A DNA stretch of 64,000 nucleotides from an uncultured Planctomycetota bacterium (GTDB lineage: Bacteria; Planctomycetota; Planctomycetia; Isosphaerales; Isosphaeraceae). The position numbers and the translations under genes are program-made. The notes beneath the pieces were generated by a model. The model did no database searches, had not been told where the DNA came from, and saw only the letters and a program-made list of their open reading frames with translations. Below, piece by piece: positions 5,371-37,164 of the stretch; the first letter of the stretch is position 1; each line of letters opens with the position of its first letter. The stretch spans positions 1 to 64,000 of the forward strand of contig CAWJTV010000011.1 in NCBI GenBank assembly GCA_963845755.1, given 5' to 3'.

Positions 5371-6534
5371 ATGAGTCATCGCAAGTTGCGCGTGGGGATG
5401 GTAGGCGGGGGCGGTCCGGCGAACTTCTTCGGGGCACCGCATCGGCGTGGGATCTTGATGGACAACTCGGCCGAGCTGACCGCCGGCGCGCTGCGGAGCA
5501 AGGCCGAGGATTCCCTCGCCGCGGCGCGCGAGCTGTTCATGCCCCGCGGCTATCCCGACTGGCAGACGATGATCCAGTCCGAGGCGGCGCTTCCCGAGTC
5601 GGAGCGGATCGACTACGTCACGATCGTCACGCCCAACGACGCCCATTTCGGCCCGGCGGACGCCGCCGCCGCCGCCGGGATCGGCGTCCTCTGCGAGAAG
5701 CCGCTGACCACCACGCTCGACGAGGCCCGCCGGCTCCATGCCACGGTCCGCTCCAAGGACACTCCTTTCGTCGTGGCCTACACCTACACCGGCTTCCCGA
5801 TGGTGATGATGGCCCGCGAGCTGGTGCACGATGGCGAGATCGGCGAGATCCGCAAGGTCGAGGCGTGGTATCCCCAGGGCTGGCTGGCCACGAAGCTCGA
5901 GGCCGACAACCAGAAGCAAGCGGCGTGGCGGGTCAACCCGTCCAAGGCGGGCGGCTCGGGCTGCGGCGGCGACATCGGCACGCATGCTTATGAATTCGTT
6001 CGTTTTGTCGCCGGCCTCTCGGCCATCAAGCTCCGCGCCCGGCTCAAGACATTCGTGCCCGGCCGGGCCCTCGACGACGATTTCACCGTCCTGGCCGACC
6101 TCAATAACGGCGTGATCGCCACCATCATGGCCTCGCAGGTCACCATCGGCGCCCAGAACGACAACGGATTCCGCGTCATCGGCACCACGGGGACCCTCGA
6201 ATGGTCGATCACCGACCACACGGTGCTGAAGCACTATGCCGGCGGCCAGCCGTTGCGACTCTATCGCCAGGGAGCCGAGTACGGCTACATCCCCGAGTCC
6301 GTCAAGCCGTACCTCCGGCTCCCCTCCGGGCACCCCGAAGGCTTCCACGAAGCCCTCGCCAATCTGCACCGGACCCTGGAATGGACCATCCGCGGCAATC
6401 GCGGCCAGAAGGCCCCCAAGCCGTTCGACCATCCCGGCATCGCCGACGGCGTCGCCGGCATGGCCTTCATCGAGGCCGCCGTCGCCAGCTCGAAGCAGGA
6501 TGGGGAGTGGGTGGAGGTTCCCAAGGTGGGCTAA
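5371..6534 (+). CDS. Gfo/Idh/MocA family oxidoreductase
   Basis: LRVGMVGGG, CEKP, GDIGTH, LPSGHPEGF motifs. Confidence 0.9.
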   Translation: MSHRKLRVGMVGGGGPANFFGAPHRRGILMDNSAELTAGALRSKAEDSLAAARELFMPRGYPDWQTMIQSEAALPESERIDYVTIVTPNDAHFGPADAAAAAGIGVLCEKPLTTTLDEARRLHATVRSKDTPFVVAYTYTGFPMVMMARELVHDGEIGEIRKVEAWYPQGWLATKLEADNQKQAAWRVNPSKAGGSGCGGDIGTHAYEFVRFVAGLSAIKLRARLKTFVPGRALDDDFTVLADLNNGVIATIMASQVTIGAQNDNGFRVIGTTGTLEWSITDHTVLKHYAGGQPLRLYRQGAEYGYIPESVKPYLRLPSGHPEGFHEALANLHRTLEWTIRGNRGQKAPKPFDHPGIADGVAGMAFIEAAVASSKQDGEWVEVPKVG

Positions 6535-6589
6535 GTTGCCTTGTCCTTCGGATCTGTCGGATCTGTCAGATTTGGAGGGAGAGGAATCC

Positions 6590-6659
6590 GATTAAGAGTA
6601 AGATGAGGAGTAAGACTAGGAAGAGGAGTAGGAGCAAGAGTAAGAGGAAGAGTAGGATC
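6590..6659. repeat. Left arm of 6-mer-based inverted repeat flanking the four-helix-bundle gene
   Basis: aagactaggaagaggagtaggagcaagag matches the reverse complement of 7421-7449 at 27/29. Confidence 0.75.
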
Positions 6660-6722
6660 TGATGCACGCCTCTGAGGCGGCCTGGTTGAATCGCCACAGA
6701 GGACCATCAGGAGTCGGAGTTC

Positions 6723-7127
6723 ATGAAGGTGACTGAGGAGACCTGGTTCGATCACGAAAGACTGGAGGTCTATTGCGAAGCCATCGCGCTCGTCGCATGG
6801 CTGTCGGGCGTCTTGGAGGGAGCCGTGCGCGTCGGTGAGGTCAAAGACCAGTTGGATCGCGCCTCCACGTCGATCCCACTGAATATTGCCGAAGGCAACG
6901 GCAAGTATTCCCCCAAGGATCGGTGCCGCTTCTTCGATATCGCCCACGGCTCCGCGCTGGAATGCGCCGCCAGGCTGGATATCCTCGTCGCCAAGGCGAA
7001 GCTAACCCTCGACGACATTCGCCCCGGCAAGGAGCGTCTCCAGAGAATCGTGCGGATGCTCATGGGATTGATCAAACGAAACTCGACACGCGACTATGAC
7101 AAACACCAGCCGGCGGACACGGTCTGA
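6723..7127 (+). CDS. Four helix bundle protein (23S rRNA IVP/Avd-like)
   Basis: FDHERLEVY, DQLDRASTSIPLNIAEG, RFFDIAHGSALEC motifs. Confidence 0.92.
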   Translation: MKVTEETWFDHERLEVYCEAIALVAWLSGVLEGAVRVGEVKDQLDRASTSIPLNIAEGNGKYSPKDRCRFFDIAHGSALECAARLDILVAKAKLTLDDIRPGKERLQRIVRMLMGLIKRNSTRDYDKHQPADTV

Positions 7128-24508: not shown

Positions 24509-25681
24509 TCACGCCCGATCATCCAGCAGCCAGAGGGCGATCGGCAGCGCGTTGTGGAACGGCGGATCGGTGCGCGAGGATTCCATCGCGGCGCCCACGC
24601 GGTGCGCGCGGTCGAGCTCGGGCGCCTCGACGAGGCGCGGCAGGCCGCAGAACTCGCGGGTCTCGGCCTCGACGCGAACGGCCGTCGAGTCCGGCGCGGG
24701 CCGGTAGAGCCGGAACGTCTCACCCGCTTGCCCATCGGGTCCCGTCGCGGTGATCGTCACGCCCATCACGCGGGGTTCGGGCCAGGGGTCCGCGTGCGCC
24801 GGCCGGGTCGAGATCCGGACGGAGATGGTCCCCCGCGGCCCGAGGAACTCGGCGTGCAACGTGGTCTCCGACGAGGAGGTGCTTCGTTCCGGCCGGCCCT
24901 GGGGCTTCCAGCCGAGCTGGCCGGCCAGCCAGGCTGCCAGCCAGATGGCGATGCGCGGCGTCCGGTCCGGCTCGCGTGCGAGGGCCTCGATGTGGACCGA
25001 GTCGATCCGGTCCAGGGCCCCGACCGCGCAGGTTGGGTCGAAGCACTGCGCGACCAGCTCGCGCCAACGGGTCAGGCCGAACCAGACGGTGTCGCGACTG
25101 AACGGGCAGACGGCCGGATCCAGGCCCAGACGGACCGCCTCGAGCTCGGCGCCGGGGTCGGGCAGGTCGAGGATCAGGCGCGAGCATTCGTCGGCCAGGG
25201 CGCGGAACAACTCCTCGTTCGACCGCGGGTCGCCGGTCCACCAGAGGACCACGGGCAGTTCGGCCTCGAGCAAGGGCCGCACGGCGCCGGGGACCAGGTC
25301 GATCGCCGCGGGACCGGCCCGGAGCACGATCCGCTCGGAGCACACCTGCGGCAGGCCCGGGGCGGGCAGGTGGCACAGTGCCGAGACCTCGGCCGCGATC
25401 CGACGCTGGGGATCGTCCGACCCGAGCACCACGATCGCCCGGCAGGGGAATCGCGTCGTGACCGTCTCCAGCACCTCGCCCAGCGATTGGGCGTCGCCGT
25501 CGAGTCGCTCGACCACCAGGTTCGCCAGCGCGATCCGCGTGACGTGCGAGCTCTCCGGATCCGGGCCGTCGAGCGGCTCGGCCGCCGGCCCCCAGAGCTT
25601 CGTCAGCTCGGTCTCGATCTCATGGAGCGCGACGGGTATCCCCTGGCCACCGAGGAACGAATCGGTCGTCGAGTCAGGCAT
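24509..25681 (-). CDS. opcA: Glucose-6-phosphate dehydrogenase assembly protein OpcA
   Basis: IETELTKLW, PCRAIVV, VCSERIVL, LPVVLWW, WLAGQLGW. Confidence 0.85.
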   Translation of the reverse strand: MPDSTTDSFLGGQGIPVALHEIETELTKLWGPAAEPLDGPDPESSHVTRIALANLVVERLDGDAQSLGEVLETVTTRFPCRAIVVLGSDDPQRRIAAEVSALCHLPAPGLPQVCSERIVLRAGPAAIDLVPGAVRPLLEAELPVVLWWTGDPRSNEELFRALADECSRLILDLPDPGAELEAVRLGLDPAVCPFSRDTVWFGLTRWRELVAQCFDPTCAVGALDRIDSVHIEALAREPDRTPRIAIWLAAWLAGQLGWKPQGRPERSTSSSETTLHAEFLGPRGTISVRISTRPAHADPWPEPRVMGVTITATGPDGQAGETFRLYRPAPDSTAVRVEAETREFCGLPRLVEAPELDRAHRVGAAMESSRTDPPFHNALPIALWLLDDRA

Positions 25682-25841
25682 CGCTGGGGCCTCCCACTTT
25701 CCCGGATCCCCGCCGCGCGATCTCGCGTCATCCGCACGCGCCGGCTCGACGGGGTTTTCTCGGGAGACCACCAGGATACACTAAAGAGAGTCTCGCTGTA
25801 CCCGGGCGACTGGAATCTCGGGGAGGAGTGCCGAGCCGGGC

Positions 25842-26441
25842 ATGAAGATCACATTTCCTTGCACCCGTTGCGGGAGGTCGCTCAAGGCCAGAGAGAATGC
25901 CGTGGGCCGCACGAGGAAGTGCCCGGTTTGCGCGACCCGCGTGACCTGTCCCGAGCCGGTCTCCGCGGCCCAGCTCGTGGATGCCGATGTCGTGTCAACG
26001 GCGCCGGCCGCCGACGGGCCCCGAGTGAACCCCTACGCAAACCTCGAGGACAGCGGCGCCTATGATGTCGTCGGCGCGGGTACGGGCGCGGATTCCCCGG
26101 TCGAAGCGCGCCGACCTTGTCCCATGTGCGGGGAGACGATCCTGGCATCGGCGGTCAAGTGCCGCTTTTGCGGTGAGGTCCTCGACCCGGCGCTCAAGAA
26201 GGGCAAGAGGTCGCGGAGACGGTTCTCGCGACGCGGCTCCGATTCCCATCCGGCCGCGGCTCGCGACGTGGGCCTTGGCATCCTCCTGGCGGTCCTGGGG
26301 ATCGGCCTGACGGCCTTCTCGTACGCGAGTGCCACCGCGAACAGCAAGGGCCAGGCGGGATTCTGGGTCTATTACGGACTGATCGGGGGCGGGATCGTCG
26401 GGATCATCCGGGGGATCTACGGCATGGTGCGATGGGGCTAG
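25842..26441 (+). CDS. Zinc-ribbon membrane protein
   Basis: CTRC/CPVC and CPMC/CRFC pairs; two C-terminal TM helices. Confidence 0.8.
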   Translation: MKITFPCTRCGRSLKARENAVGRTRKCPVCATRVTCPEPVSAAQLVDADVVSTAPAADGPRVNPYANLEDSGAYDVVGAGTGADSPVEARRPCPMCGETILASAVKCRFCGEVLDPALKKGKRSRRRFSRRGSDSHPAAARDVGLGILLAVLGIGLTAFSYASATANSKGQAGFWVYYGLIGGGIVGIIRGIYGMVRWG

Positions 26442-26544
26442 AATCGGCCCCACGCTCGGGACAGGCCCGCGATCCTGTTCCGGACGGGGAGAGATCCGGG
26501 TATGTTGGAGCAGGATCCAGGAAAACGGGGAGGGTAGCGAGTTC

Positions 26545-27246
26545 ATGCCTGCCGTCGTCTCGTGTCAGTGCGGAGCCCGGGTTCGGGTTCCCGAATCCCC
26601 CACCGGACTGGCGGTCCGCTGCCCGCGGTGTAAGGCCGAGCTGGCCGTGCCGGGCGCCGGACCGATCGTGACATCCGCGCTGGCCGACCCGCAGGGCCTG
26701 GGGGCGACCTGCCCGATCTGCCAGACGGCGATCGGTCGCGACGAGGCGGTCATCACGTGCCCGGTGTGCGACCAGGTGCATCATCGCGAATGCTGGAGCG
26801 ACGTCGGCGGCTGCGCGACCTATGGCTGCGAGAACGCGCCCAAGGGCGAGAAGGCCACGCCGGCGGAGACGCCGCTCTCGGCCTGGGGCGATACCAAGAA
26901 GTGCCCGGCCTGCGGGGAGACGATCAAGGCGATCGCCCTGCGATGCCGCTACTGCGGAACCGATTTCGACACGGTCGATCCACTGAGCCTCAAGGACCTG
27001 CGCGGCCGGGTCGTCAAGGAGGAGCGGCTCCAGGCGACGCGGAGCACCGTGGTCGCGCTGTTCATCCTGAGCCTGCTGGGCTGCCTGGCCCCCATCCTGG
27101 CGATCGTCGCCCCGTGCTATATCCTGCCCAAACGGGCGACGGTGGCCCGGGCCGGGCCCGTCTACCTGATCATGGGCTATTCCGCGATCGGGATTTCGGC
27201 CGTAGAATCGATCTTGTTGCCGTTGTTCTGGCTGTTCTCGCAGTGA
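26545..27246 (+). CDS. Membrane-anchored prokaryotic RING finger protein flanked by Zn ribbons
   Basis: CPICQTAIGRDEAVITCPVCDQVHHRECWSDVGGCATYGC (Prok-RING_1 pattern); C-terminal TMs. Confidence 0.85.
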   Translation: MPAVVSCQCGARVRVPESPTGLAVRCPRCKAELAVPGAGPIVTSALADPQGLGATCPICQTAIGRDEAVITCPVCDQVHHRECWSDVGGCATYGCENAPKGEKATPAETPLSAWGDTKKCPACGETIKAIALRCRYCGTDFDTVDPLSLKDLRGRVVKEERLQATRSTVVALFILSLLGCLAPILAIVAPCYILPKRATVARAGPVYLIMGYSAIGISAVESILLPLFWLFSQ

Positions 27247-27330
27247 TGGTCCGAATTTCATCAACCAGGTCCACAGGAGCGCGGTCGCTCCCCATGGCTC
27301 GAGGCCGGGGAATCTGCCGCGACGAAAGCG

Positions 27331-28639
27331 TTGAGCGCGTCGGCCGGGAGATCGCTGTTGGCCTCGGTACGCGAGGCGGGCACGGCATGTCCTCACTGTA
27401 TGACCGAGGTCGTGGCGGGCGATCCGGTCGTCATCTGCCAGGCATGCGGGACGGTGCATCACCAGAGATGTTGGGACGAGCGGTCGGGGTGCGGCTCGTA
27501 CTCCTGCGCCCCGGCGCGGCGACCCGAGATCGCGGCGGACCCGACCGAACCCGTCCTCCTGATCAGCCAGGCGGAGATCGAACGCGCCATCCCGCTCAGC
27601 GCAGGTGCGCTCCCACTCCGCGCAACCCCGCCCGAGAGCCGGACCTGGAACCCGGCCGTTCCCTCGCCAGCGAGTCGGACGCCGGCCAAGCCCCGGGTCA
27701 GCCGGTTCGCGATCGCCTCGCTGATCTGCGCCCTGGTGGGAATCTTCCCATTCGGCATCGTCACGGGCTTGATTGCCGTCGTGCTGGCCCTGGTGGCGAT
27801 GAGTCAGATCCGCACCCAGGCCCAACGCGGGGTCTGGGTTGCCGCCTCCGGCTTCCTGATGGGGATCGTCGTCTTCGTGGGCTGGGCCGTCGTCCTGGTG
27901 TGGTTCGCCTCGAATCCCGGGCTCACCACCGAGTTTCTCTACTCCGAGCCGCCCCCCGACCTCGCGATGATCCAGGAGCTCGAGCCGCCCCTCCAGCGCG
28001 CCATGCGGGCCAACGTCCTCATCGAGCGGAACGTCGGGATGGCCCTCCTCGGCGGCAAGGCGATCGGATCGGGGGTGATCCTCCGCATCGACCGGGGCCA
28101 GGCCGTGATCGTGACTAACCGCCATGTGGTCGACCCCGCTTTCCCGTCCCGCAACGACAATGCCGCCGAGCGGCTCTCGCAGGTCGGCCGCCTGACCGTC
28201 CGCATGCTCGGCCAGCCCGACTGCGAGGGGCAAGTCGTCTGGATGGCCCCCGGCCAGGTCGACCTGGCCTTGGTCCGCGCCGCCTGCACCCCCACGACCG
28301 GCGCAGGCCGCCTTCTGGCAGAAGGCCCGTCCCATGAAAGTCGGCCAGATCGTCTTTGCCATCGGCAATCCCCACCAGCTTGGCTGGACCCAGACCCAGG
28401 GCGTGATCTCCCAGTTCCGGATCCGGCCCATCGACGATCGCCGGATCCGCGTCATCCAGACCCAGGCGGCCATCAATCAGGGCAACAGCGGCGGCGGCCT
28501 CTACGACCAGGAGGGTTACTGCCTCGGCATCAATACCTGGACCGCCGACAAGCGGATCACCGAGGGGATCGGCTTCGCCATCGTGCTCGACACCCTCCTC
28601 GACCTGTCGCCGGCGCCGCTGGAGATTTCCAAGGAATAA
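27331..28639 (+). CDS. Prok-RING + DUF4190 TM + trypsin-like serine protease fusion (frameshift near 28310)
   Basis: CPHC...CQACGTVHHQRCWDERSGCGSYSC; FAIASLICAL; triad VTNRHVV / DLALV / INQGNSGGGL; true start may be ATG 27246. Confidence 0.82.
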
Positions 28640-28684
28640 TCCTCCCCTTCGTGGGGGAAGGGAAACACGAGGGCCCATGCGACG

Positions 28685-29419
28685 ATGAGCACCGTTCGGC
28701 TGCGTCGGCTCCAGGCGGACTACGACCGGCTGCGGGAGTACGTCAACCGGCACCCCCGGTTGCAACTGATCCAGGCCGAAGGGACGCCGCCGGAGCGCTA
28801 TCAACTGGAGTACCGGATCCGCAGCTTGCGGCAGAAAGACGACGACCTCTCGCTGGTCAAGAGCCACATGGTCGAGATCGCGCTGCCGCTGAACTATCCG
28901 CGGCTGCCGCCGCAGTGCCGGATGCTCACGCCGATCTTCCATCCCAACATCGCCCCCCATGCGATCTGCATCGGCGACCACTGGAGTCCGGGCGAGCCGC
29001 TCTGGTCGATCGTGGCGCGGATCGGGGAGATGATCGCCTACCAGAGCTACAACACCAAGAGCCCGCTCAACGGCGAGGCCGCGCGCTGGGTCGACCAGCA
29101 TCTCGGCGAGCTGCCGCTGGACCCGGTGAGCATGATGCCCGACGATGCAGGAACCGGCGCCGCGACGTTGCCCTCGACCAGTCCCCCGCGTCCGGAACCG
29201 CCGCCCGCGCCCCGCATCGTCCCGCCGCCACCCCCCGTGCCCCCGCCCGCGCCCGCATCGCCGGCCGCCGCCGCGGTCGGACCGGCGCCTCCCGCTCCGG
29301 AAGCCGATCGCCATTTCGCGTGCCCCCAATGCGGCTCGATCGCCCGATGGCGTCCCGAGCTGGTCGGGAAGCAGTTGCGCTGTCCGCGGTGCCACACGGT
29401 GTTCCGATGCCCGGGATGA
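28685..29419 (+). CDS. Ubiquitin-conjugating enzyme E2 (UBC fold) with Pro-rich linker and C-terminal Zn ribbon
   Basis: RLRRLQADY helix 1, LPLNYPRLPP, TPIFHPNIAPHAIC, WSP, SPLNGEAA. Confidence 0.92.
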   Translation: MSTVRLRRLQADYDRLREYVNRHPRLQLIQAEGTPPERYQLEYRIRSLRQKDDDLSLVKSHMVEIALPLNYPRLPPQCRMLTPIFHPNIAPHAICIGDHWSPGEPLWSIVARIGEMIAYQSYNTKSPLNGEAARWVDQHLGELPLDPVSMMPDDAGTGAATLPSTSPPRPEPPPAPRIVPPPPPVPPPAPASPAAAAVGPAPPAPEADRHFACPQCGSIARWRPELVGKQLRCPRCHTVFRCPG

Positions 29420-29904
29420 GGAATGCCATGGGACCGGACCCGTCGAACACGATCGAGAGCGAGCCACCCGACGCCGCACCGAGCCGGGCCCGCCGCCATC
29501 GCGAAGTGCTGGCGGTCGCCTGCGCGGTCGTGATCCTCGCCTTCCTGTTCGTGGAGGTCTCCGGCGGCCGGGTCGCCGTGCGCGGGTTGACCGGCTACCC
29601 CCTCCCTGAAAGCTGCCTGTCGCGGACCTGGTTCGGACTGAAGTGCCCCGGCTGCGGTCTGACCCGCTCGATCGTCCACCTGGCGGAAGGGGACTGGCGG
29701 GCCTCCTGGCGGAGCCACCGGCTCGGTGGTCTCATGGCGGCGGTGATCGTGTTTCAGATCCCCTATCGTCTGATGGCCCTGCGCAGGCCCGATCGACACC
29801 TGATCCCGGATCGCTGGCTGGCCGTCTTCGGGTATGTGCTGATCGGGCTCTTGATCGGGAACTGGTTGATGGATGTGGTGGGCGGCCAGGTCGGCTCGGC
29901 TTGA
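29416..29904 (+). CDS. DUF2752 membrane protein
   Basis: CLSRTWFGLKCPGCGLTRS...GDWRASW; ATGA overlap with the E2 stop. Confidence 0.85.
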   Translation: MRNAMGPDPSNTIESEPPDAAPSRARRHREVLAVACAVVILAFLFVEVSGGRVAVRGLTGYPLPESCLSRTWFGLKCPGCGLTRSIVHLAEGDWRASWRSHRLGGLMAAVIVFQIPYRLMALRRPDRHLIPDRWLAVFGYVLIGLLIGNWLMDVVGGQVGSA

Positions 29905-30015
29905 TGGTCCAGGCTCGGCCGGTTAGCCCTGCGGATCGGGCTTTGGGGCTGACCGTGGGATCGTCGTCACTTAGACTATGCAAGGTGGGTTCTGACTTGC
30001 GAGGCCAGAGAGGGC

Positions 30016-30309
30016 GTGGACATGCTGAGGTACAAGGCAGGCTACAAGTTTGTCGAAGGCGGGGTGCACGCCCAAGTGCTGGACTTCCCCGCGGCCATCA
30101 CTTGCGGCGGCGATCTGGCGGAAGCCCGACAATTGCTCGCCGTGGCGTTGATCGACGTGGCGGAGACCGCGTTGGAGTTGGGACAGCCCCTGCCGATCCC
30201 CGATCCGCTGGTCAACGATGTGGAGATGGACATCGAGGAGCCGATCTATCTCCACCTCAGAGCAAGCTCCGCGGTCGAAGAGGTACCAGCGGGGGTGGTT
30301 GCACCGTGA
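30016..30309 (+). CDS. hicB: HicB-like antitoxin
   Basis: LDFPAAITCGGDLAEARQLL...GQPLPIP. Confidence 0.8.
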   Translation: MDMLRYKAGYKFVEGGVHAQVLDFPAAITCGGDLAEARQLLAVALIDVAETALELGQPLPIPDPLVNDVEMDIEEPIYLHLRASSAVEEVPAGVVAP

Positions 30310-30491
30310 AGCGGACAGACCTTCTCCGCCATCTGCTCGCGCACGGTGGTCGGTTGCTGCGTGAGGGCCGAGGACACTCGGTGTGGGTCAACCCGGCGAA
30401 CGGACAGCAGGGCTCGATCCCGCGTCACCGGTAGATCAACGACTATACCGCTCGCGGGATCTGTCGCCAGTTGGGCGTTCCCGAGCCATGA
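30306..30491 (+). pseudogene. hicA: HicA toxin with internal amber stop
   Basis: VKRTDLLRHL...REGRGHSVWVNP...IPRHR*INDYTARGICRQLGVP; TAG at 30432-30434. Confidence 0.8.
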
Positions 30492-30620
30492 AGCGAGGCG
30501 AAGCCGTGCCTTGGCGGGCGTTGTCTCCAAGGGTGTGATCTCGCTATAGTGACACCGCGAGACTCCGACGCGAGAGGATCCCGGCCGGAACTGCCGGCGT
30601 TGAACCCAGGGGCTTAGACG

Positions 30621-32177
30621 ATGCCCGAATTGAACCCCTCCACTGAGACCAACCCCTTGCGGCAGGCGTTGCCGCGGACGCAGGTGCCCGAGCCCTGCGC
30701 CGTGGTGCTCTTCGGCGCCACGGGGGACCTGGCACATCGCAAGTTGGTCCCGGCGCTGTTCCAGCTCGCGCGGGCCGGTCATTTGCCGTCGGAGTGCGCG
30801 ATCGTCGGGTTCGCCCGCCGCGACTGGACCGACGCGCAGCTCCGCGACGAGTACGAGAAGACCCTGGCCAAGGAGGGGGATACTCCCGAATTCCGCGCGG
30901 CCTGGAATCCGTTCGCCAGCCGGCTGTTCTTCGCGTCCGGGACCTTCGACGACCCGGAGGGATACCGGAACCTCAAGGCCACCCTGGAGGAGCTCGACCG
31001 CACGCACGGGACCCGGGGTAACCGCGTCTACTACCTGGCGGTCTCGCCCGAATACTTCGCGACGATCATCAATCGGCTGGGCGAGGCGGGCCTGATCTAC
31101 CCCTGGCAGCAGCAGAACCCCTGGAGCCGGGTGGTCATCGAGAAACCCTTCGGTCATGACCTCGCCAGCGCCCGCCAGTTGAACCTCGACGTCTCGCACG
31201 TGCTCGACGAGTGCCAGGTCTTTCGCATCGACCACTACCTCGGCAAGGAGACGGTGCAGAACATCCTGGCGCTGCGGTTCGGCAACACCATCTATGAGCC
31301 AATCTGGGATCGTCGATATGTCCACTCGGTGCAGGTGACGGTCGCCGAGGAGGTCGGCATGGCCGGCGGCCGGGGCGCGTATTACGACACCGCCGGCACG
31401 ATCCGCGACATGGTGCAGAACCACATGATGCAACTGCTCTGCCTGGTGGCGATGGAGCCCCCGGTGAACCTCTCGGCCGACGCGGTGCGCAACGAGAAGG
31501 TCAAGGTACTCCAGGCCCTGCCGCACTGGCGGCCCGAGGAGGTCGATCGCAACGTCGTCCGCGCCCAGTACACCGCCGGCTCGATCCAGGGATCTGATGT
31601 CCCCGGCTACCTCCAGGAGAAAGGCGTCAACCCCCAGTCGAGGACGGACACGTTCGTCGCGATCCGGCTGGAGCTGAACAACTGGCGGTGGGCCGGCGTG
31701 CCGTTCTTCCTCCGCACCGGCAAGCGGCTCCCCAAGCGCGCGACCGAGATCGCCATCCAGTTCCGACGGCCGCCCACGGGCCTGTTCGAGCCCGAGGGGG
31801 ACGGCCAGTGCGTGGCCAACCAGCTCGTGCTGCGGATCCAGCCCAACGAGGGGGCCAGCCTGGCGTTCCAGGCCAAGATCCCCGGCTCGCGGCGCCGGCT
31901 CCAGGAAGTGCGCATGGATTTTCGCTATGGCGCGGCCTTCGCCGTCCCGCCGCCGGAAGCCTACGAGCGGCTGCTCCTCGACGTCATGCTCGGCGACCAG
32001 TCGCTCTATACCCGCACCGATGAAGTCGACAGCGCCTGGCAGTTCATCACGTCGATCCTGGACGCCTGGAATCGGCCCGAGGCGCCGCCGCCGGCCACCT
32101 ACGTCGCCGGGAGCTGGGGACCTCCGGAAGCCGATGCGCTGATCGTCCAGGATGGCGCCCGATGGCGCAGGCCGTGA
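30621..32177 (+). CDS. zwf: Glucose-6-phosphate 1-dehydrogenase
   Basis: GATGDLA, EKPFG, RIDHYLGKE, RDMVQNH. Confidence 0.97.
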   Translation: MPELNPSTETNPLRQALPRTQVPEPCAVVLFGATGDLAHRKLVPALFQLARAGHLPSECAIVGFARRDWTDAQLRDEYEKTLAKEGDTPEFRAAWNPFASRLFFASGTFDDPEGYRNLKATLEELDRTHGTRGNRVYYLAVSPEYFATIINRLGEAGLIYPWQQQNPWSRVVIEKPFGHDLASARQLNLDVSHVLDECQVFRIDHYLGKETVQNILALRFGNTIYEPIWDRRYVHSVQVTVAEEVGMAGGRGAYYDTAGTIRDMVQNHMMQLLCLVAMEPPVNLSADAVRNEKVKVLQALPHWRPEEVDRNVVRAQYTAGSIQGSDVPGYLQEKGVNPQSRTDTFVAIRLELNNWRWAGVPFFLRTGKRLPKRATEIAIQFRRPPTGLFEPEGDGQCVANQLVLRIQPNEGASLAFQAKIPGSRRRLQEVRMDFRYGAAFAVPPPEAYERLLLDVMLGDQSLYTRTDEVDSAWQFITSILDAWNRPEAPPPATYVAGSWGPPEADALIVQDGARWRRP

Positions 32178-34885: not shown

Positions 34886-36479
34886 ATGAGCCCGGCCACG
34901 AGCCCCATTGAGACCGATGCCGGCTCAGCCGTCGTGCCGCACCGGCTGGAGATGCGGCACATCGCCAAGAGCTTCGGGGGCGTGCGCGCTGCGAGACGTG
35001 TCGCTGGTCGCGCCGGCCGGCGAGGTCCACTCGATCTGCGGCGAGAACGGGGCGGGCAAGAGCACGCTGATGAAGATCCTCGCCGGCGCGATCGCCGAAT
35101 ACGACGGCGCGATCGTCCTGGACGGCCGCCCGGTCTGGTTCTCCGGACCGCGCAGGCCGAGGATGCCGGCATCCGGATCATCTACCAGGAGCTCAACCTC
35201 GTCCCGCAGCTCACCGTGGCCGACAACATCTTCCTCGGCCGGGAGACGACGCGCGGGGGCCGGCTCGGCTGGCTGGATGAACGCGCGATGGAAGCCCGGA
35301 CGCGCCGGCTCTTCGACCGCCTGGGCGCCCCGATCGCGCCGCGGACCCGCGTCGGCGACCTGCGGATCGGCGACCAGCAGATGGTCGAGATCGCCAAGGC
35401 GCTGGCGTTCGAAGCCTCGATCGTGATCATGGACGAGCCCACCTCGGCCCTGTCGGACTCGGAGGTTGCCCGGCTCTTCCGCGTCATCGACGACCTCCGG
35501 CGGGCCGGAACCACGGTGCTGTACATCAGCCACAAGATGAACGAGGTCTTCACGCTGTCCGACCGCGTGACCGTGCTCCGCGACGGCCAGCTCGTCGCGT
35601 CGTCGTCGCGGGCGGACACCACGCCCGACCAGGTCGTGCGCTGGATGGTCGGCCGCGAGATCGCCGCGCTGAACTACCAGCCCCACCCGATCCAGCCCCG
35701 GGCGACTCTCGAGGTGGCGGACCTCTCGTTGCCCAGCCCGACGGGGAGCGGCCGGCCCAGCCTGCGCGGCATCACGTTCTCGGTCCGGGCCGGCGAGGTG
35801 CTGGGCGTCGCCGGCCTGCTCGGCGCCGGCCGCACCGAGCTCCTCGAAGCGATCTACGGCGCCAGCCCGTCGCCACCGGGAGGCACACTCCAGTTGGAAG
35901 GCCGGCCGGTCCGCTTCAGCCACCCCGACCAGGCCATCCGCGCCGGCATCGCGATGGTCACCGAGGATCGCAAGACCCTCGGCCTCTTCGACCGGATGAC
36001 CGTCGCCGAGAACATCACGCTCCGCCGTCTCTCCGACCTGACTTTCGGCGCGCTGCCGCTGGTCGACCCCCGCGCCGCACCGGGCGGTCGAGTGGTCGAT
36101 CAAGGAGCTGGCGATCAAGACGGCCGGCGGCGATGCCCCGGTGACGAGCCTCTCCGGCGGCAACCAGCAGAAGTGCATCCTCGCCCGATGGCTTCTGATC
36201 GAGCCCCGGCTGCTCCTGCTCGACGAGCCGACGCGCGGCATCGACGTCGGCGCCAAGTCCGAGATCTACCAACTGATCCGCCGCCTGGCCGGACAGGGCC
36301 GTGCCATCATGATGACGTCCAGCGAGCTGCCCGAGCTACTGGCCGTCGCCGACCGGATCATCGTCCTCTGCGAGGGGCGAATCACGGCGGAGATCCCCCG
36401 CGCCGAGGCCACGGAGGAGGCCATCATGCACGCCGCGACCCGGTTCCTCGACCGGGCTAAGCCGGGAGTGGCCGACTAA
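34886..36479 (+). CDS. Sugar ABC transporter ATP-binding protein, RbsA-like (frameshifted)
   Basis: [38 protein letters not shown] across three frames. Confidence 0.88.
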
Positions 36480-37164
36480 CGCTGACGTCTGGTTTCGCCC
36501 GCGGGACAGTCAGTAGGCCACGTCGTGACGAGGCAATTACGGATGCTGTCGGTTGCGGCGGCTCGGCGTTTGTTCCAGGAACCCAAACCGGCGGAATCGT
36601 CGAGCCTGGGGCATCAGACCAAAAACGATGGGACGGTTTCTCTTGCCTCCGTTCTTCGAGACCCGGAGGCCGACCGAAATCCCCAGGGACCAAGGCGTTC
36701 CGTCGCTCCTCAGGACTCTCTGGCTGAGGAGATGTCGTGGGGGCCCGTTCCCGGGGGGTCACGTCACGGGACCGCTTCGACGCTGGCACGAATCATGCTA
36801 CGAGTCCGTGGGGAAGACGGCCCCCATGCCTTCAAGCCGGGTGTCCCGTGGCGAATCTTGCGAGAGCGCTTAACGCTGGGATGAAGATCGCCGGACGGAG
36901 CCGGCTCCTAAAAGAAGTACTTGGACCGGCGGGAACGGCTCCAGGTGCTCGGACAAAACGAAGAAATCCTCCTGTTCTTGAAAGTTCTCGATGAGCACCT
37001 CTTCGCGGTCCCGGCACCCCGATCCTCTCCCCGTGGGGGCGAGGGCGACGGATCGAATCCCCTTCTCCCCTCGTCGAGAAGGTACCCGCAGGGCGGATGA
37101 GAACGTGGGCCGCCGGCAGCCACAGGATCGGATGGAGGCGATCGCATCGGAGGCCAACGGGACC

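Follow-up and report, generated by a model that had tools for sequence, protein, structure and literature searches.

A UBC-fold E2 of an uncultured planctomycete, probably part of a split and membrane-anchored ubiquitin-like conjugation operon

The window analysed here, a 64,000-nt stretch of contig CAWJTV010000011.1 with a high GC content (0.61-0.70), comes from a planctomycete genome of 14.27 Mb and carries a gene for an E2 (ubiquitin-conjugating) enzyme. Upstream of it on the same strand lie genes for a zinc (Zn)-ribbon protein with a transmembrane (TM) segment and for two Prok-RING_1 proteins, the second fused to a protease, and a DUF2752 membrane protein gene follows (Table 1). The E2 probably works within a mostly membrane-anchored bacterial operon for conjugation of a ubiquitin-like protein (Ubl), which is split in this genome: Ubl, E1, JAB and FHA genes lie on another contig, C36, and the RING, RING-protease, E2 and DUF2752 genes in the window.

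Table 1. Features of the E2 gene and its neighbours in the window (AF2, AlphaFold2; ORF, open reading frame)
Feature	Position	Strand	Basis
E2 ORF, 244 aa	28685-29419	+	
UBC (E2) catalytic core, residues 1-150	28685..29134	+	UQ_con, Rad6B alignment, AF2, VIA-align
HPN motif, His86-Pro87-Asn88 (CAT CCC AAC)	codons 28940-28948	+	sequence
Cys95, catalytic position (TGC)	codon 28967-28969	+	sequence and Rad6B alignment
Pro/Ala-rich linker of E2, residues 151-208, ~58 residues	29135..29308	+	translation, AF2
C-terminal four-Cys Zn ribbon of E2 (Cys213, Cys216, Cys233, Cys236), then stop	29309..29419	+	AF2, weak Pfam
Zn-ribbon/Zn-ribbon/TM protein, 199 aa, first gene of the window half-operon	25842..26441	+	ORF
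N-terminal ribbon, C4HC3 Prok-RING_1 (~53-96), second ribbon, C-terminal TM helices; candidate E3	26545..27246	+	Pfam, AF2
Prok-RING_1 + DUF4190 (TM) + trypsin-like serine protease, frame broken	27331..28639	+	Pfam
DUF2752 membrane protein	29416..29904	+	PF10825, 60.7 bits (cut-off 27)

A sequence-only reading of this stretch had described a eukaryote-like E2 with HPN at residues 86-88, a catalytic Cys95, and YPRLPP and WSPG loops. All of these are read directly from the translation (YPRLPP at residues 71-76, WSPG at 100-103), in agreement with a Pfam match and with an alignment to a solved E2. The match to UQ_con (PF00179) spans residues 62-137 and, with 42.9 bits (E 4.7e-11), exceeds the family cut-off of 27. 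A phmmer search of the PDB returned 273 distinct chains at E ≤ 1, the first being human Rad6B/UBE2B (1jas, E 1.3e-6); in that alignment both HPN and WSP meet the identical motif, YPRLPP pairs with YPNKPP, and Cys95 stands opposite the active-site Cys within 'gsICld'. The window protein has 3 residues fewer in the loop that follows the catalytic Cys. An AF2 model was built from 63 aligned sequences, picked from 270 proteins by length and by a match start near residue 1. Structure prediction had been proposed as a check on the sequence-only reading, and it returned the UBC fold, with a mean predicted local distance difference test score (pLDDT) of 90 (about 97 in the core, residues 1-150; 66-82 in the linker; about 90 in the ribbon) and a predicted template modelling score (pTM) of 0.65. 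Foldseek gave at least 400 PDB matches to the model at E ≤ 0.001, the top rows, near 1e-7, being Ubc13 (1e-7), UbcH5c (1.2e-7) and Rad6B. The best VIA-align match is UBE2S (7ahf_A; Z 14.1, root-mean-square deviation 3.0 Å over 132 residues), and the best 50 rows are all eukaryotic E2-fold chains with 16-27% identity, covering model residues 1-147. The last helix of the model ends at residue 138, so that the usual final E2 helix seems to be absent. The gene is a genuine UBC-fold E2 with its motifs where Table 1 places them, and no chance pattern.

Related loci were gathered by a scan of one genome per species, which yielded 80 loci and, with the window, a conservation set of 81 E2s. The hosts are Planctomycetota (Isosphaeraceae, Planctomycetaceae, Pirellulales, Thermoguttaceae, Phycisphaerae and Brocadiia), Riflebacteria/Ozemobacteraceae, Verrucomicrobia, Sumerlaeota, Victivallales and Anaeromyxobacter. 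Over the first 160 residues, His86, Pro87, Asn88 and Trp100 are each invariant (81/81), as are Pro72 and Pro76, and Tyr71 is kept in 80/81. The sequence-only reading had let its case stand or fall with Cys95; this residue aligns with the Rad6B Cys and is present in 81/81 orthologues. A wider protein search with the E2 found 2100 proteins at E ≤ 0.001 among 8000 candidates scored, many of the same length and some already named 'ubiquitin-conjugating enzyme E2 [Isosphaeraceae bacterium]' or 'ubiquitin-protein ligase'. Representatives searched exhaustively gave 1722 at E ≤ 0.001, of which 179 reach E ≤ 1e-30; among the best 150, HPN is found in 148 and Cys95 in 145 (His in 2 others, Gly in 1, a gap in 2). 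Close relatives are 77-83% identical, and the window ORF is intact over its full length. The prediction of an active E2 is well supported by the fold, by the invariant HPN and aligned Cys, and by the Ubl, E1 and JAB genes in the genome, and the enzyme is likely to be catalytically competent.

A second Cys, Cys78 (28916-28918, in PPQC78R), lies on the strand before the HPN loop. It is present in 81/81 orthologues and in 135/150 representatives, and the aligned Rad6B residue is Val.

The two genes directly upstream of the E2 account for two of the three Prok-RING_1 matches in the whole genome. The sequence-only reading had drawn attention to ribbons upstream, which are indeed there, and had missed the Prok-RING_1 fingers in the genes at 26545 and 27331. 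The former matches PF14446 at 44.8 bits (cut-off 29.1); among the 47 of 69 sequences aligned, C56, C59, C72, C75, H80, C83, C90 and C95, together with Trp84, are invariant, and the AF2 model of the protein has a pLDDT of 85.9. In the latter, residues 16-54 pass PF14446 at 39 bits. The two Prok-RING_1 proteins are likely E3 partners of the E2. The E2 stop codon overlaps the DUF2752 ATG (ATGA). None of the E2, RING, ribbon and DUF2752 proteins has an NCBIfam model, and a sequencing-run search listed no RNA run and no run with more than 0.12 of the sampled words.

The neighbours of the window E2 were sought by tblastn in the 80 loci; except where stated, the genes counted share one strand and a fixed order. 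The RING-ribbon-TM gene recurs at 76/80 loci, the N part of the RING-TM-protease at 75 and its C part at 74, DUF2752 at 62 (downstream of the E2 in 60 and upstream in 2), and a relative of the ribbon-TM gene at 25842, upstream of the E2, at 48. Some 4-6 kb upstream of the E2 we found JAB at 37 loci, E1 at 31 and Ubl at 11, counts that are limited by the 6-kb flank; of the 58 loci whose flank is complete, 36 show an upstream JAB and 22 none. In two intact operons (L066 and L046) the order is YukD-like Ubl, ThiF E1, JAB with TM, TM-FHA, (ribbon-TM), RING-ribbon-TM, RING-TM-trypsin, E2, (ribbon-RING-ribbon-TM) and DUF2752, with all L066 domains confirmed by Pfam. From these comparisons the operon type would read YukD-like Ubl, ThiF-type E1, JAB/MPN+ peptidase-TM, TM-FHA, one or more Zn-ribbon-TM proteins, Prok-RING-ribbon-TM, Prok-RING-TM-trypsin, E2, DUF2752.

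The upstream half of this order is found elsewhere in the window genome, in which UQ_con matches two places and ThiF five. A cognate half-operon on contig C36 (264912-269674, + strand) encodes Ubl, E1, JAB, TM-FHA and ribbon-TM proteins and no E2; its Ubl is 66% identical to that of L066 and its E1 58% identical to that of L046 (57-58%). The ribbon-TM gene that ends it encodes a protein 47% identical over 118 aa to that of the gene at 25842, for which Pfam gives weak zinc-ribbon matches below cut-off (Zn_Ribbon_1, E 3.2e-4). Both halves thus border a ribbon-TM paralogue, and several relatives have 2-3 tandem copies of the gene, which suggests a break between duplicates. Five close relatives of the window genome all carry the cognate Ubl/E1, the pieces being 77-92% identical; the halves stand apart yet both are kept in 5/5, so the split appears common to the lineage. 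Contig numbers suggest that in four of the five a single contig carries both the Ubl/E1 pair and the E2, 10-28 kb apart. Judged by synteny and identity, the window locus is a split member of this operon type and not a different system.

The modifier ends in QPEITAG in all 12 Ubls read (11 loci and C36). Beyond this point come 2-33 extra residues or, in L046, L067 and C36, an in-frame run into the E1, and such a C-terminal extension implies that a peptidase would be needed to expose the Gly. In C36 the Ubl and E1 (L089, 3700-5448) form one 582-aa open frame, joined by about 45 residues after QPEITAG; this fusion may be an artefact, since close relatives show a stop between the parts. A precedent for such processing is given in passages on the Caldiarchaeum operon, in which Rpn11 exposes the Gly of an extended precursor (PMC6043591).

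From the fold, motifs, conservation and synteny, and from the presence of all partners in the genome, we infer a route in which the JAB peptidase would trim the Ubl precursor after QPEITAG, and the C36 E1 would adenylate the Ubl and hand it on as a thioester to Cys95 of the E2, with Asn88 of HPN stabilising the oxyanion. The charged E2 would then dock on the C4HC3 RINGs of the two membrane proteins encoded just upstream and discharge the Ubl onto target lysines at the cytoplasmic face of the membrane.

A separate system is encoded on contig C34, at 594-599 kb (L008 6485-10620, minus strand): an operon for a YukD-like Ubl (ending VVAG+SI), an HPN-type E2', a ThiF E1' and a JAB' with TM and a coiled coil. 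About 24 kb from this operon, at C34:621874, is the genome's third Prok-RING_1. The E2' is 33% identical to the window E2 and has no ribbon; the C34 Ubl and E1 are 44% and 42% identical to their intact-operon counterparts.

The E2 core is followed, as the sequence-only reading had stated, by a Pro/Ala linker and a CPQC..CPRC tail (C213-P-Q-C216 ... C233-P-R-C236). The tail is modelled as four short strands and gives a weak Pfam match to Zn_ribbon_4 at residues 212-241 (E 0.056); we take it to be MJ0042-like, going by Pfam family names. The linker varies in length and sequence among orthologues, and so does what follows it. In 47/81 E2s, mostly from planctomycetes, the Pro/Ala linker leads to one terminal CxxC...CxxC ribbon; ~20/81, from Riflebacteria and others, carry an array of ~25 Cys, and three of these also end in a ribbon; 5/81 lack any Cys beyond residue 150, of which two are 155 aa long and at least one of the remaining three is truncated by a contig end. 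The array, about 140 aa with 24-50 Cys, stands in for the ribbon at loci L054, L056 and L058-L088 (E2 genes near 6001-6900), which come from Riflebacteria and several further groups; that of L066 matched no Pfam family.

The ribbon had also been described as similar to those of the proteins encoded at 25842 and 26545. A hidden Markov model (HMM) of the 47 ribbon tails among the 81 E2s, searched over the 199,538 six-frame ORFs of the genome, gave 25 domain matches in 21 ORFs at E < 0.01. The likeness is borne out for the N-terminal ribbon of the 26545 protein (rank 15, E 5.1e-6), just behind the C36 Zn-ribbon-TM protein (rank 14, E 3.8e-6), but not for the 25842 protein (rank 35, E 0.85 genome-wide). 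Better scores belong to thirteen rows of non-operon proteins, their ribbons mostly lying near the coding start of unrelated proteins, most of which have TM segments; nine top-scoring non-operon ORFs with a ribbon near the start were read, and most are membrane proteins. With 25 copies in 21 ORFs, mostly of unrelated proteins, the ribbon is a promiscuous module and not a signature of the operon. Among the 68/80 loci with a complete RING-ribbon-TM ORF passing filters, the RING protein has an N-terminal ribbon in 40/44 where the E2 ends in a ribbon and in 1/20 where the E2 has a Cys array alone; this co-occurrence follows phylogeny and is therefore not independent evidence.

Recruitment of the E2 through Zn-ribbon modules shared within the operon, as the sequence-only reading proposed, is a guess. 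The ribbon, carried on a linker, probably helps to hold a soluble E2 at a membrane complex. A bolder idea starts from the occurrence of the same ribbon on the E2 tail, the RING and the ribbon-TM proteins: the ribbon would be an address label, and the E2/RING and RING-trypsin proteins a proteasome-free system, akin to endoplasmic-reticulum-associated degradation, that recognises, tags and cleaves ribbon-bearing membrane proteins. We hold this to be improbable.

Several observations weigh against placing the E2 in the proposed cascade. (i) No E1, Ubl or JAB was found among the ORFs of the window cluster or by Pfam, the pairing of window and C36 rests on synteny in other genomes, and the C34 operon and the window system could cross-talk. 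(ii) The family is patchy, being detected in 44/301 sampled genomes of the phylum at E ≤ 1e-5 (23/190 high-quality genomes; 5/15 in one family, f2), which indicates that the system is dispensable. (iii) The RING-protease gene is frameshifted in the assembly, near 28300-28305. (iv) With the 26545 model, Foldseek finds no match at E ≤ 0.001, the best rows being eukaryotic RING domains (7ojx_A at E 0.048; RNF165, RNF13, RNF38). (v) Of the RING-binding loops that the sequence-only reading took to be retained, the scaffolds are there and one contact is altered. UbcH5 presumably meets RINGs through Phe62 of loop 4 and Ser-Pro-Ala of loop 7, and the key residue Phe62 corresponds, by our reckoning, to Arg73 of the window E2 (Arg in 76/81, Lys in 4/81). 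YPxxPP and W-S/A-P/A-G are kept in the family, with W-[S/A]-A in most relatives (position 101 is Ser in 40/81 and Ala in 36/81; position 102 is Ala in 61/81 and Pro in 19/81). With an Arg at the Phe62 position, canonical RING docking is not assured. In favour of the E2-RING pairing, complex prediction, run on E2 residues 1-152 with residues 46-106 of the 26545 protein, lends weak support. The score is 0.53 against 0.00 for the best control, and the runs agree in at least 87% of contacts with a partner pLDDT of at least 77. The mark was reached by 116/157 solved complexes and 2/215 mismatched pairs, and 18/157 solved complexes and both passing mismatches lie past the mark at 0.60 or under; E2-RING complexes have been solved many times, so that a pass may reflect likeness.

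Either a mistake in the assembly or a genuine slip within a short GC repeat could lie behind the broken protease frame. Frame 1 encodes Prok-RING_1, DUF4190 and the N half of Trypsin_2, and frame 2, from 28334, the C half. Across the change (28290-28340) the window reads GGCGCAGG, and the frame of the orthologues needs two more bases (GC). The L009 orthologue is in one frame throughout, and two contigs from relatives, both of run X5, carry two extra bases at 28300 or 28303 that would restore the frame; the contigs compared here come mostly from relatives 88-95% alike, not from the same strain. An ABC-transporter ATPase gene of the window (34886-36480) also needs three frame changes (near 34990, 35150 and 36090), which makes indel errors in the assembly the simpler reading.

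What such a cascade is for admits another view, namely a role in phage defence or conflict comparable to that of Bil or type II CBASS (cyclic oligonucleotide-based antiphage signalling system), with Ubl conjugation switching on the RING-trypsin effector in place of a housekeeping role in turnover or signalling. We think this rather unlikely, even though the patchy distribution, the FHA and protease components, and the phage defence role that passages of one study assign to other bacterial E1/E2/Ubl/JAB operons (10.1101/2024.11.21.623966) all speak for it. No PADLOC 2.0.0 model matches the E2, RING, ribbon, DUF2752 or FHA proteins (for the E2, no family at E ≤ 0.001), and the E1 and JAB match generic E1-E2/ThiF, BilD and JAB models only. 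The operon adjoins zwf/opcA in 11-13 Isosphaeraceae-like loci, with no obvious defence island, and its gene order is stable across several phyla. That the window E2 is instead charged by the C34 E1' with the C34 Ubl, or serves both systems, would fit the common families of the Ubl, E1 and JAB and the RING gene near the C34 operon. It is nonetheless improbable in our estimation, as C34 has an E2' of its own and the C36 half has none, and the E1 and Ubl that intact operons pair with this type of E2 are of the C36 type (57-58% and 66% identity, against 42% and 44% for C34).

The split operon and the frameshifted protease might also be taken to mean that the E2 is a non-catalytic docking module, like the ubiquitin E2 variants (UEVs), or the decaying remnant of a broken operon. 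Invariant HPN and Cys95, an intact ORF with close relatives of high identity, the retention of both separated halves in 5/5 related genomes, and the indels in the ABC ATPase, which look like assembly errors, make this very improbable. Least credible of all is a recent transfer of a eukaryotic E2 into the bacterium: eukaryotic E2s do supply all of the top matches in the PDB and fold searches, but identity to them is low, and the gene sits in a bacterial operon conserved across several phyla. Weighing these together, we keep to a Ubl conjugation operon split between the window and C36.

The surroundings of the window cluster show a few further features. A G+C-rich inverted repeat of 7-9 bp (28641-28665) lies in the 45-nt gap between the protease and E2 genes and is terminator-like on the minus strand only; scanning 25500-30700 for promoters and terminators gave no + strand call within the cluster. 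Upstream of the cluster, on the opposite strand, is opcA. Between DUF2752 and the next downstream ORF, which from its translation we take to be zwf, there is a small gene pair (30016-30440) whose products look, likewise by translation, like an antitoxin of the HicB kind and a toxin of the HicA kind.

Burroughs, Iyer and Aravind (Mol Biosyst 2011) reportedly predicted prokaryotic YukD-like Ubl/E1/E2/JAB/Prok-RING operons computationally, and their work is said to be the source of Pfam Prok-RING_1. The window and C36 share with that operon type the HPN-type E2, ThiF-type E1, YukD-like Ubl, JAB and membrane Prok-RING_1 proteins, and also the placing of the E2 next to Prok-RING_1 proteins (26545 and 27331 here; 75-76/80 loci), whereas the operon of the window genome is in two pieces. 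The operon type was already predicted in 2011, and what is particular here is the split and the variable Zn-binding tails of the E2s. Passages of later papers mention Caldiarchaeum-related operons in Actinobacteria, Planctomycetes and Acidobacteria, citing Burroughs, Iyer and Aravind 2011 (PMC4197634); Planctomycetes E2 homologues, citing Arcas et al. 2013 (PMC8382908); sporadic bacterial E2/E3 homologues, some in complete operons (Hennell James et al., PMC5654768); and, in a 2024 review, proteins of Riflebacteria and a few further phyla that are homologous to the catalytic domains of human E2s (PMC11354881). The operon type is not covered in the passages found of Iyer et al. 2006 (PMC1779556), and full-text literature searches found no experimental work on a RING-containing HPN-type operon.

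As described in passages of two papers (PMC5654768, PMC6043591), the operon of Caldiarchaeum subterraneum is likewise a compact cascade: its E2 is eukaryote-like, its E3 is a RING protein, and a JAMM peptidase matures ubiquitin from a precursor with a C-terminal extension. That system, however, is soluble, uses true ubiquitin and has been reconstituted in vitro. The window/C36 system differs in its YukD-like modifier, its membrane-anchored E3s, JAB and FHA and its RING-protease fusion, and is known from genes alone. With Bil, type II CBASS (Cap2) and Bub it has in common the bacterial E1/E2/Ubl/JAB conjugation logic (passages of 10.1101/2024.11.21.623966); it departs from them in the lack of a PADLOC match for the E2 and in its RING E3s and membrane partners, and its E2 is of the HPN type, while the BilB motif is given as CEHH in passages of PMC11354881.

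Eukaryotic class I E2s (UBE2S, UbcH5/UBE2D, Rad6/UBE2A/B) share with the window E2 the UBC fold, HPN, the Cys position and the YPxxPP and WSP scaffolds; the window E2 differs in the shorter loop after the catalytic Cys (by 3), the Arg at the Phe62 position, the invariant Cys78, the last helix missing from the model and the added C-terminal Zn ribbon. Eukaryotic RING-CH ligases such as MARCH and Doa10 are membrane C4HC3 RING E3s, and the window RINGs share the membrane anchor and the C4HC3 ligand order with such eukaryotic enzymes.

Bacterial Ubl conjugation is an active field (CBASS, Bil, Bub), and RING-containing HPN-type operons, which are in their parts the nearest to the eukaryotic E1-E2-RING cascade, have since 2011 been known from comparative genomics only. 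The picture of how eukaryotic ubiquitination arose is unchanged by this locus. What the locus adds to the operon type is variable Zn-binding E2 tails, an E3 fused to a protease, a Ubl made as a precursor or as an E1 fusion, and an operon that can work split in two, which matters wherever systems are scored by gene neighbourhood alone.

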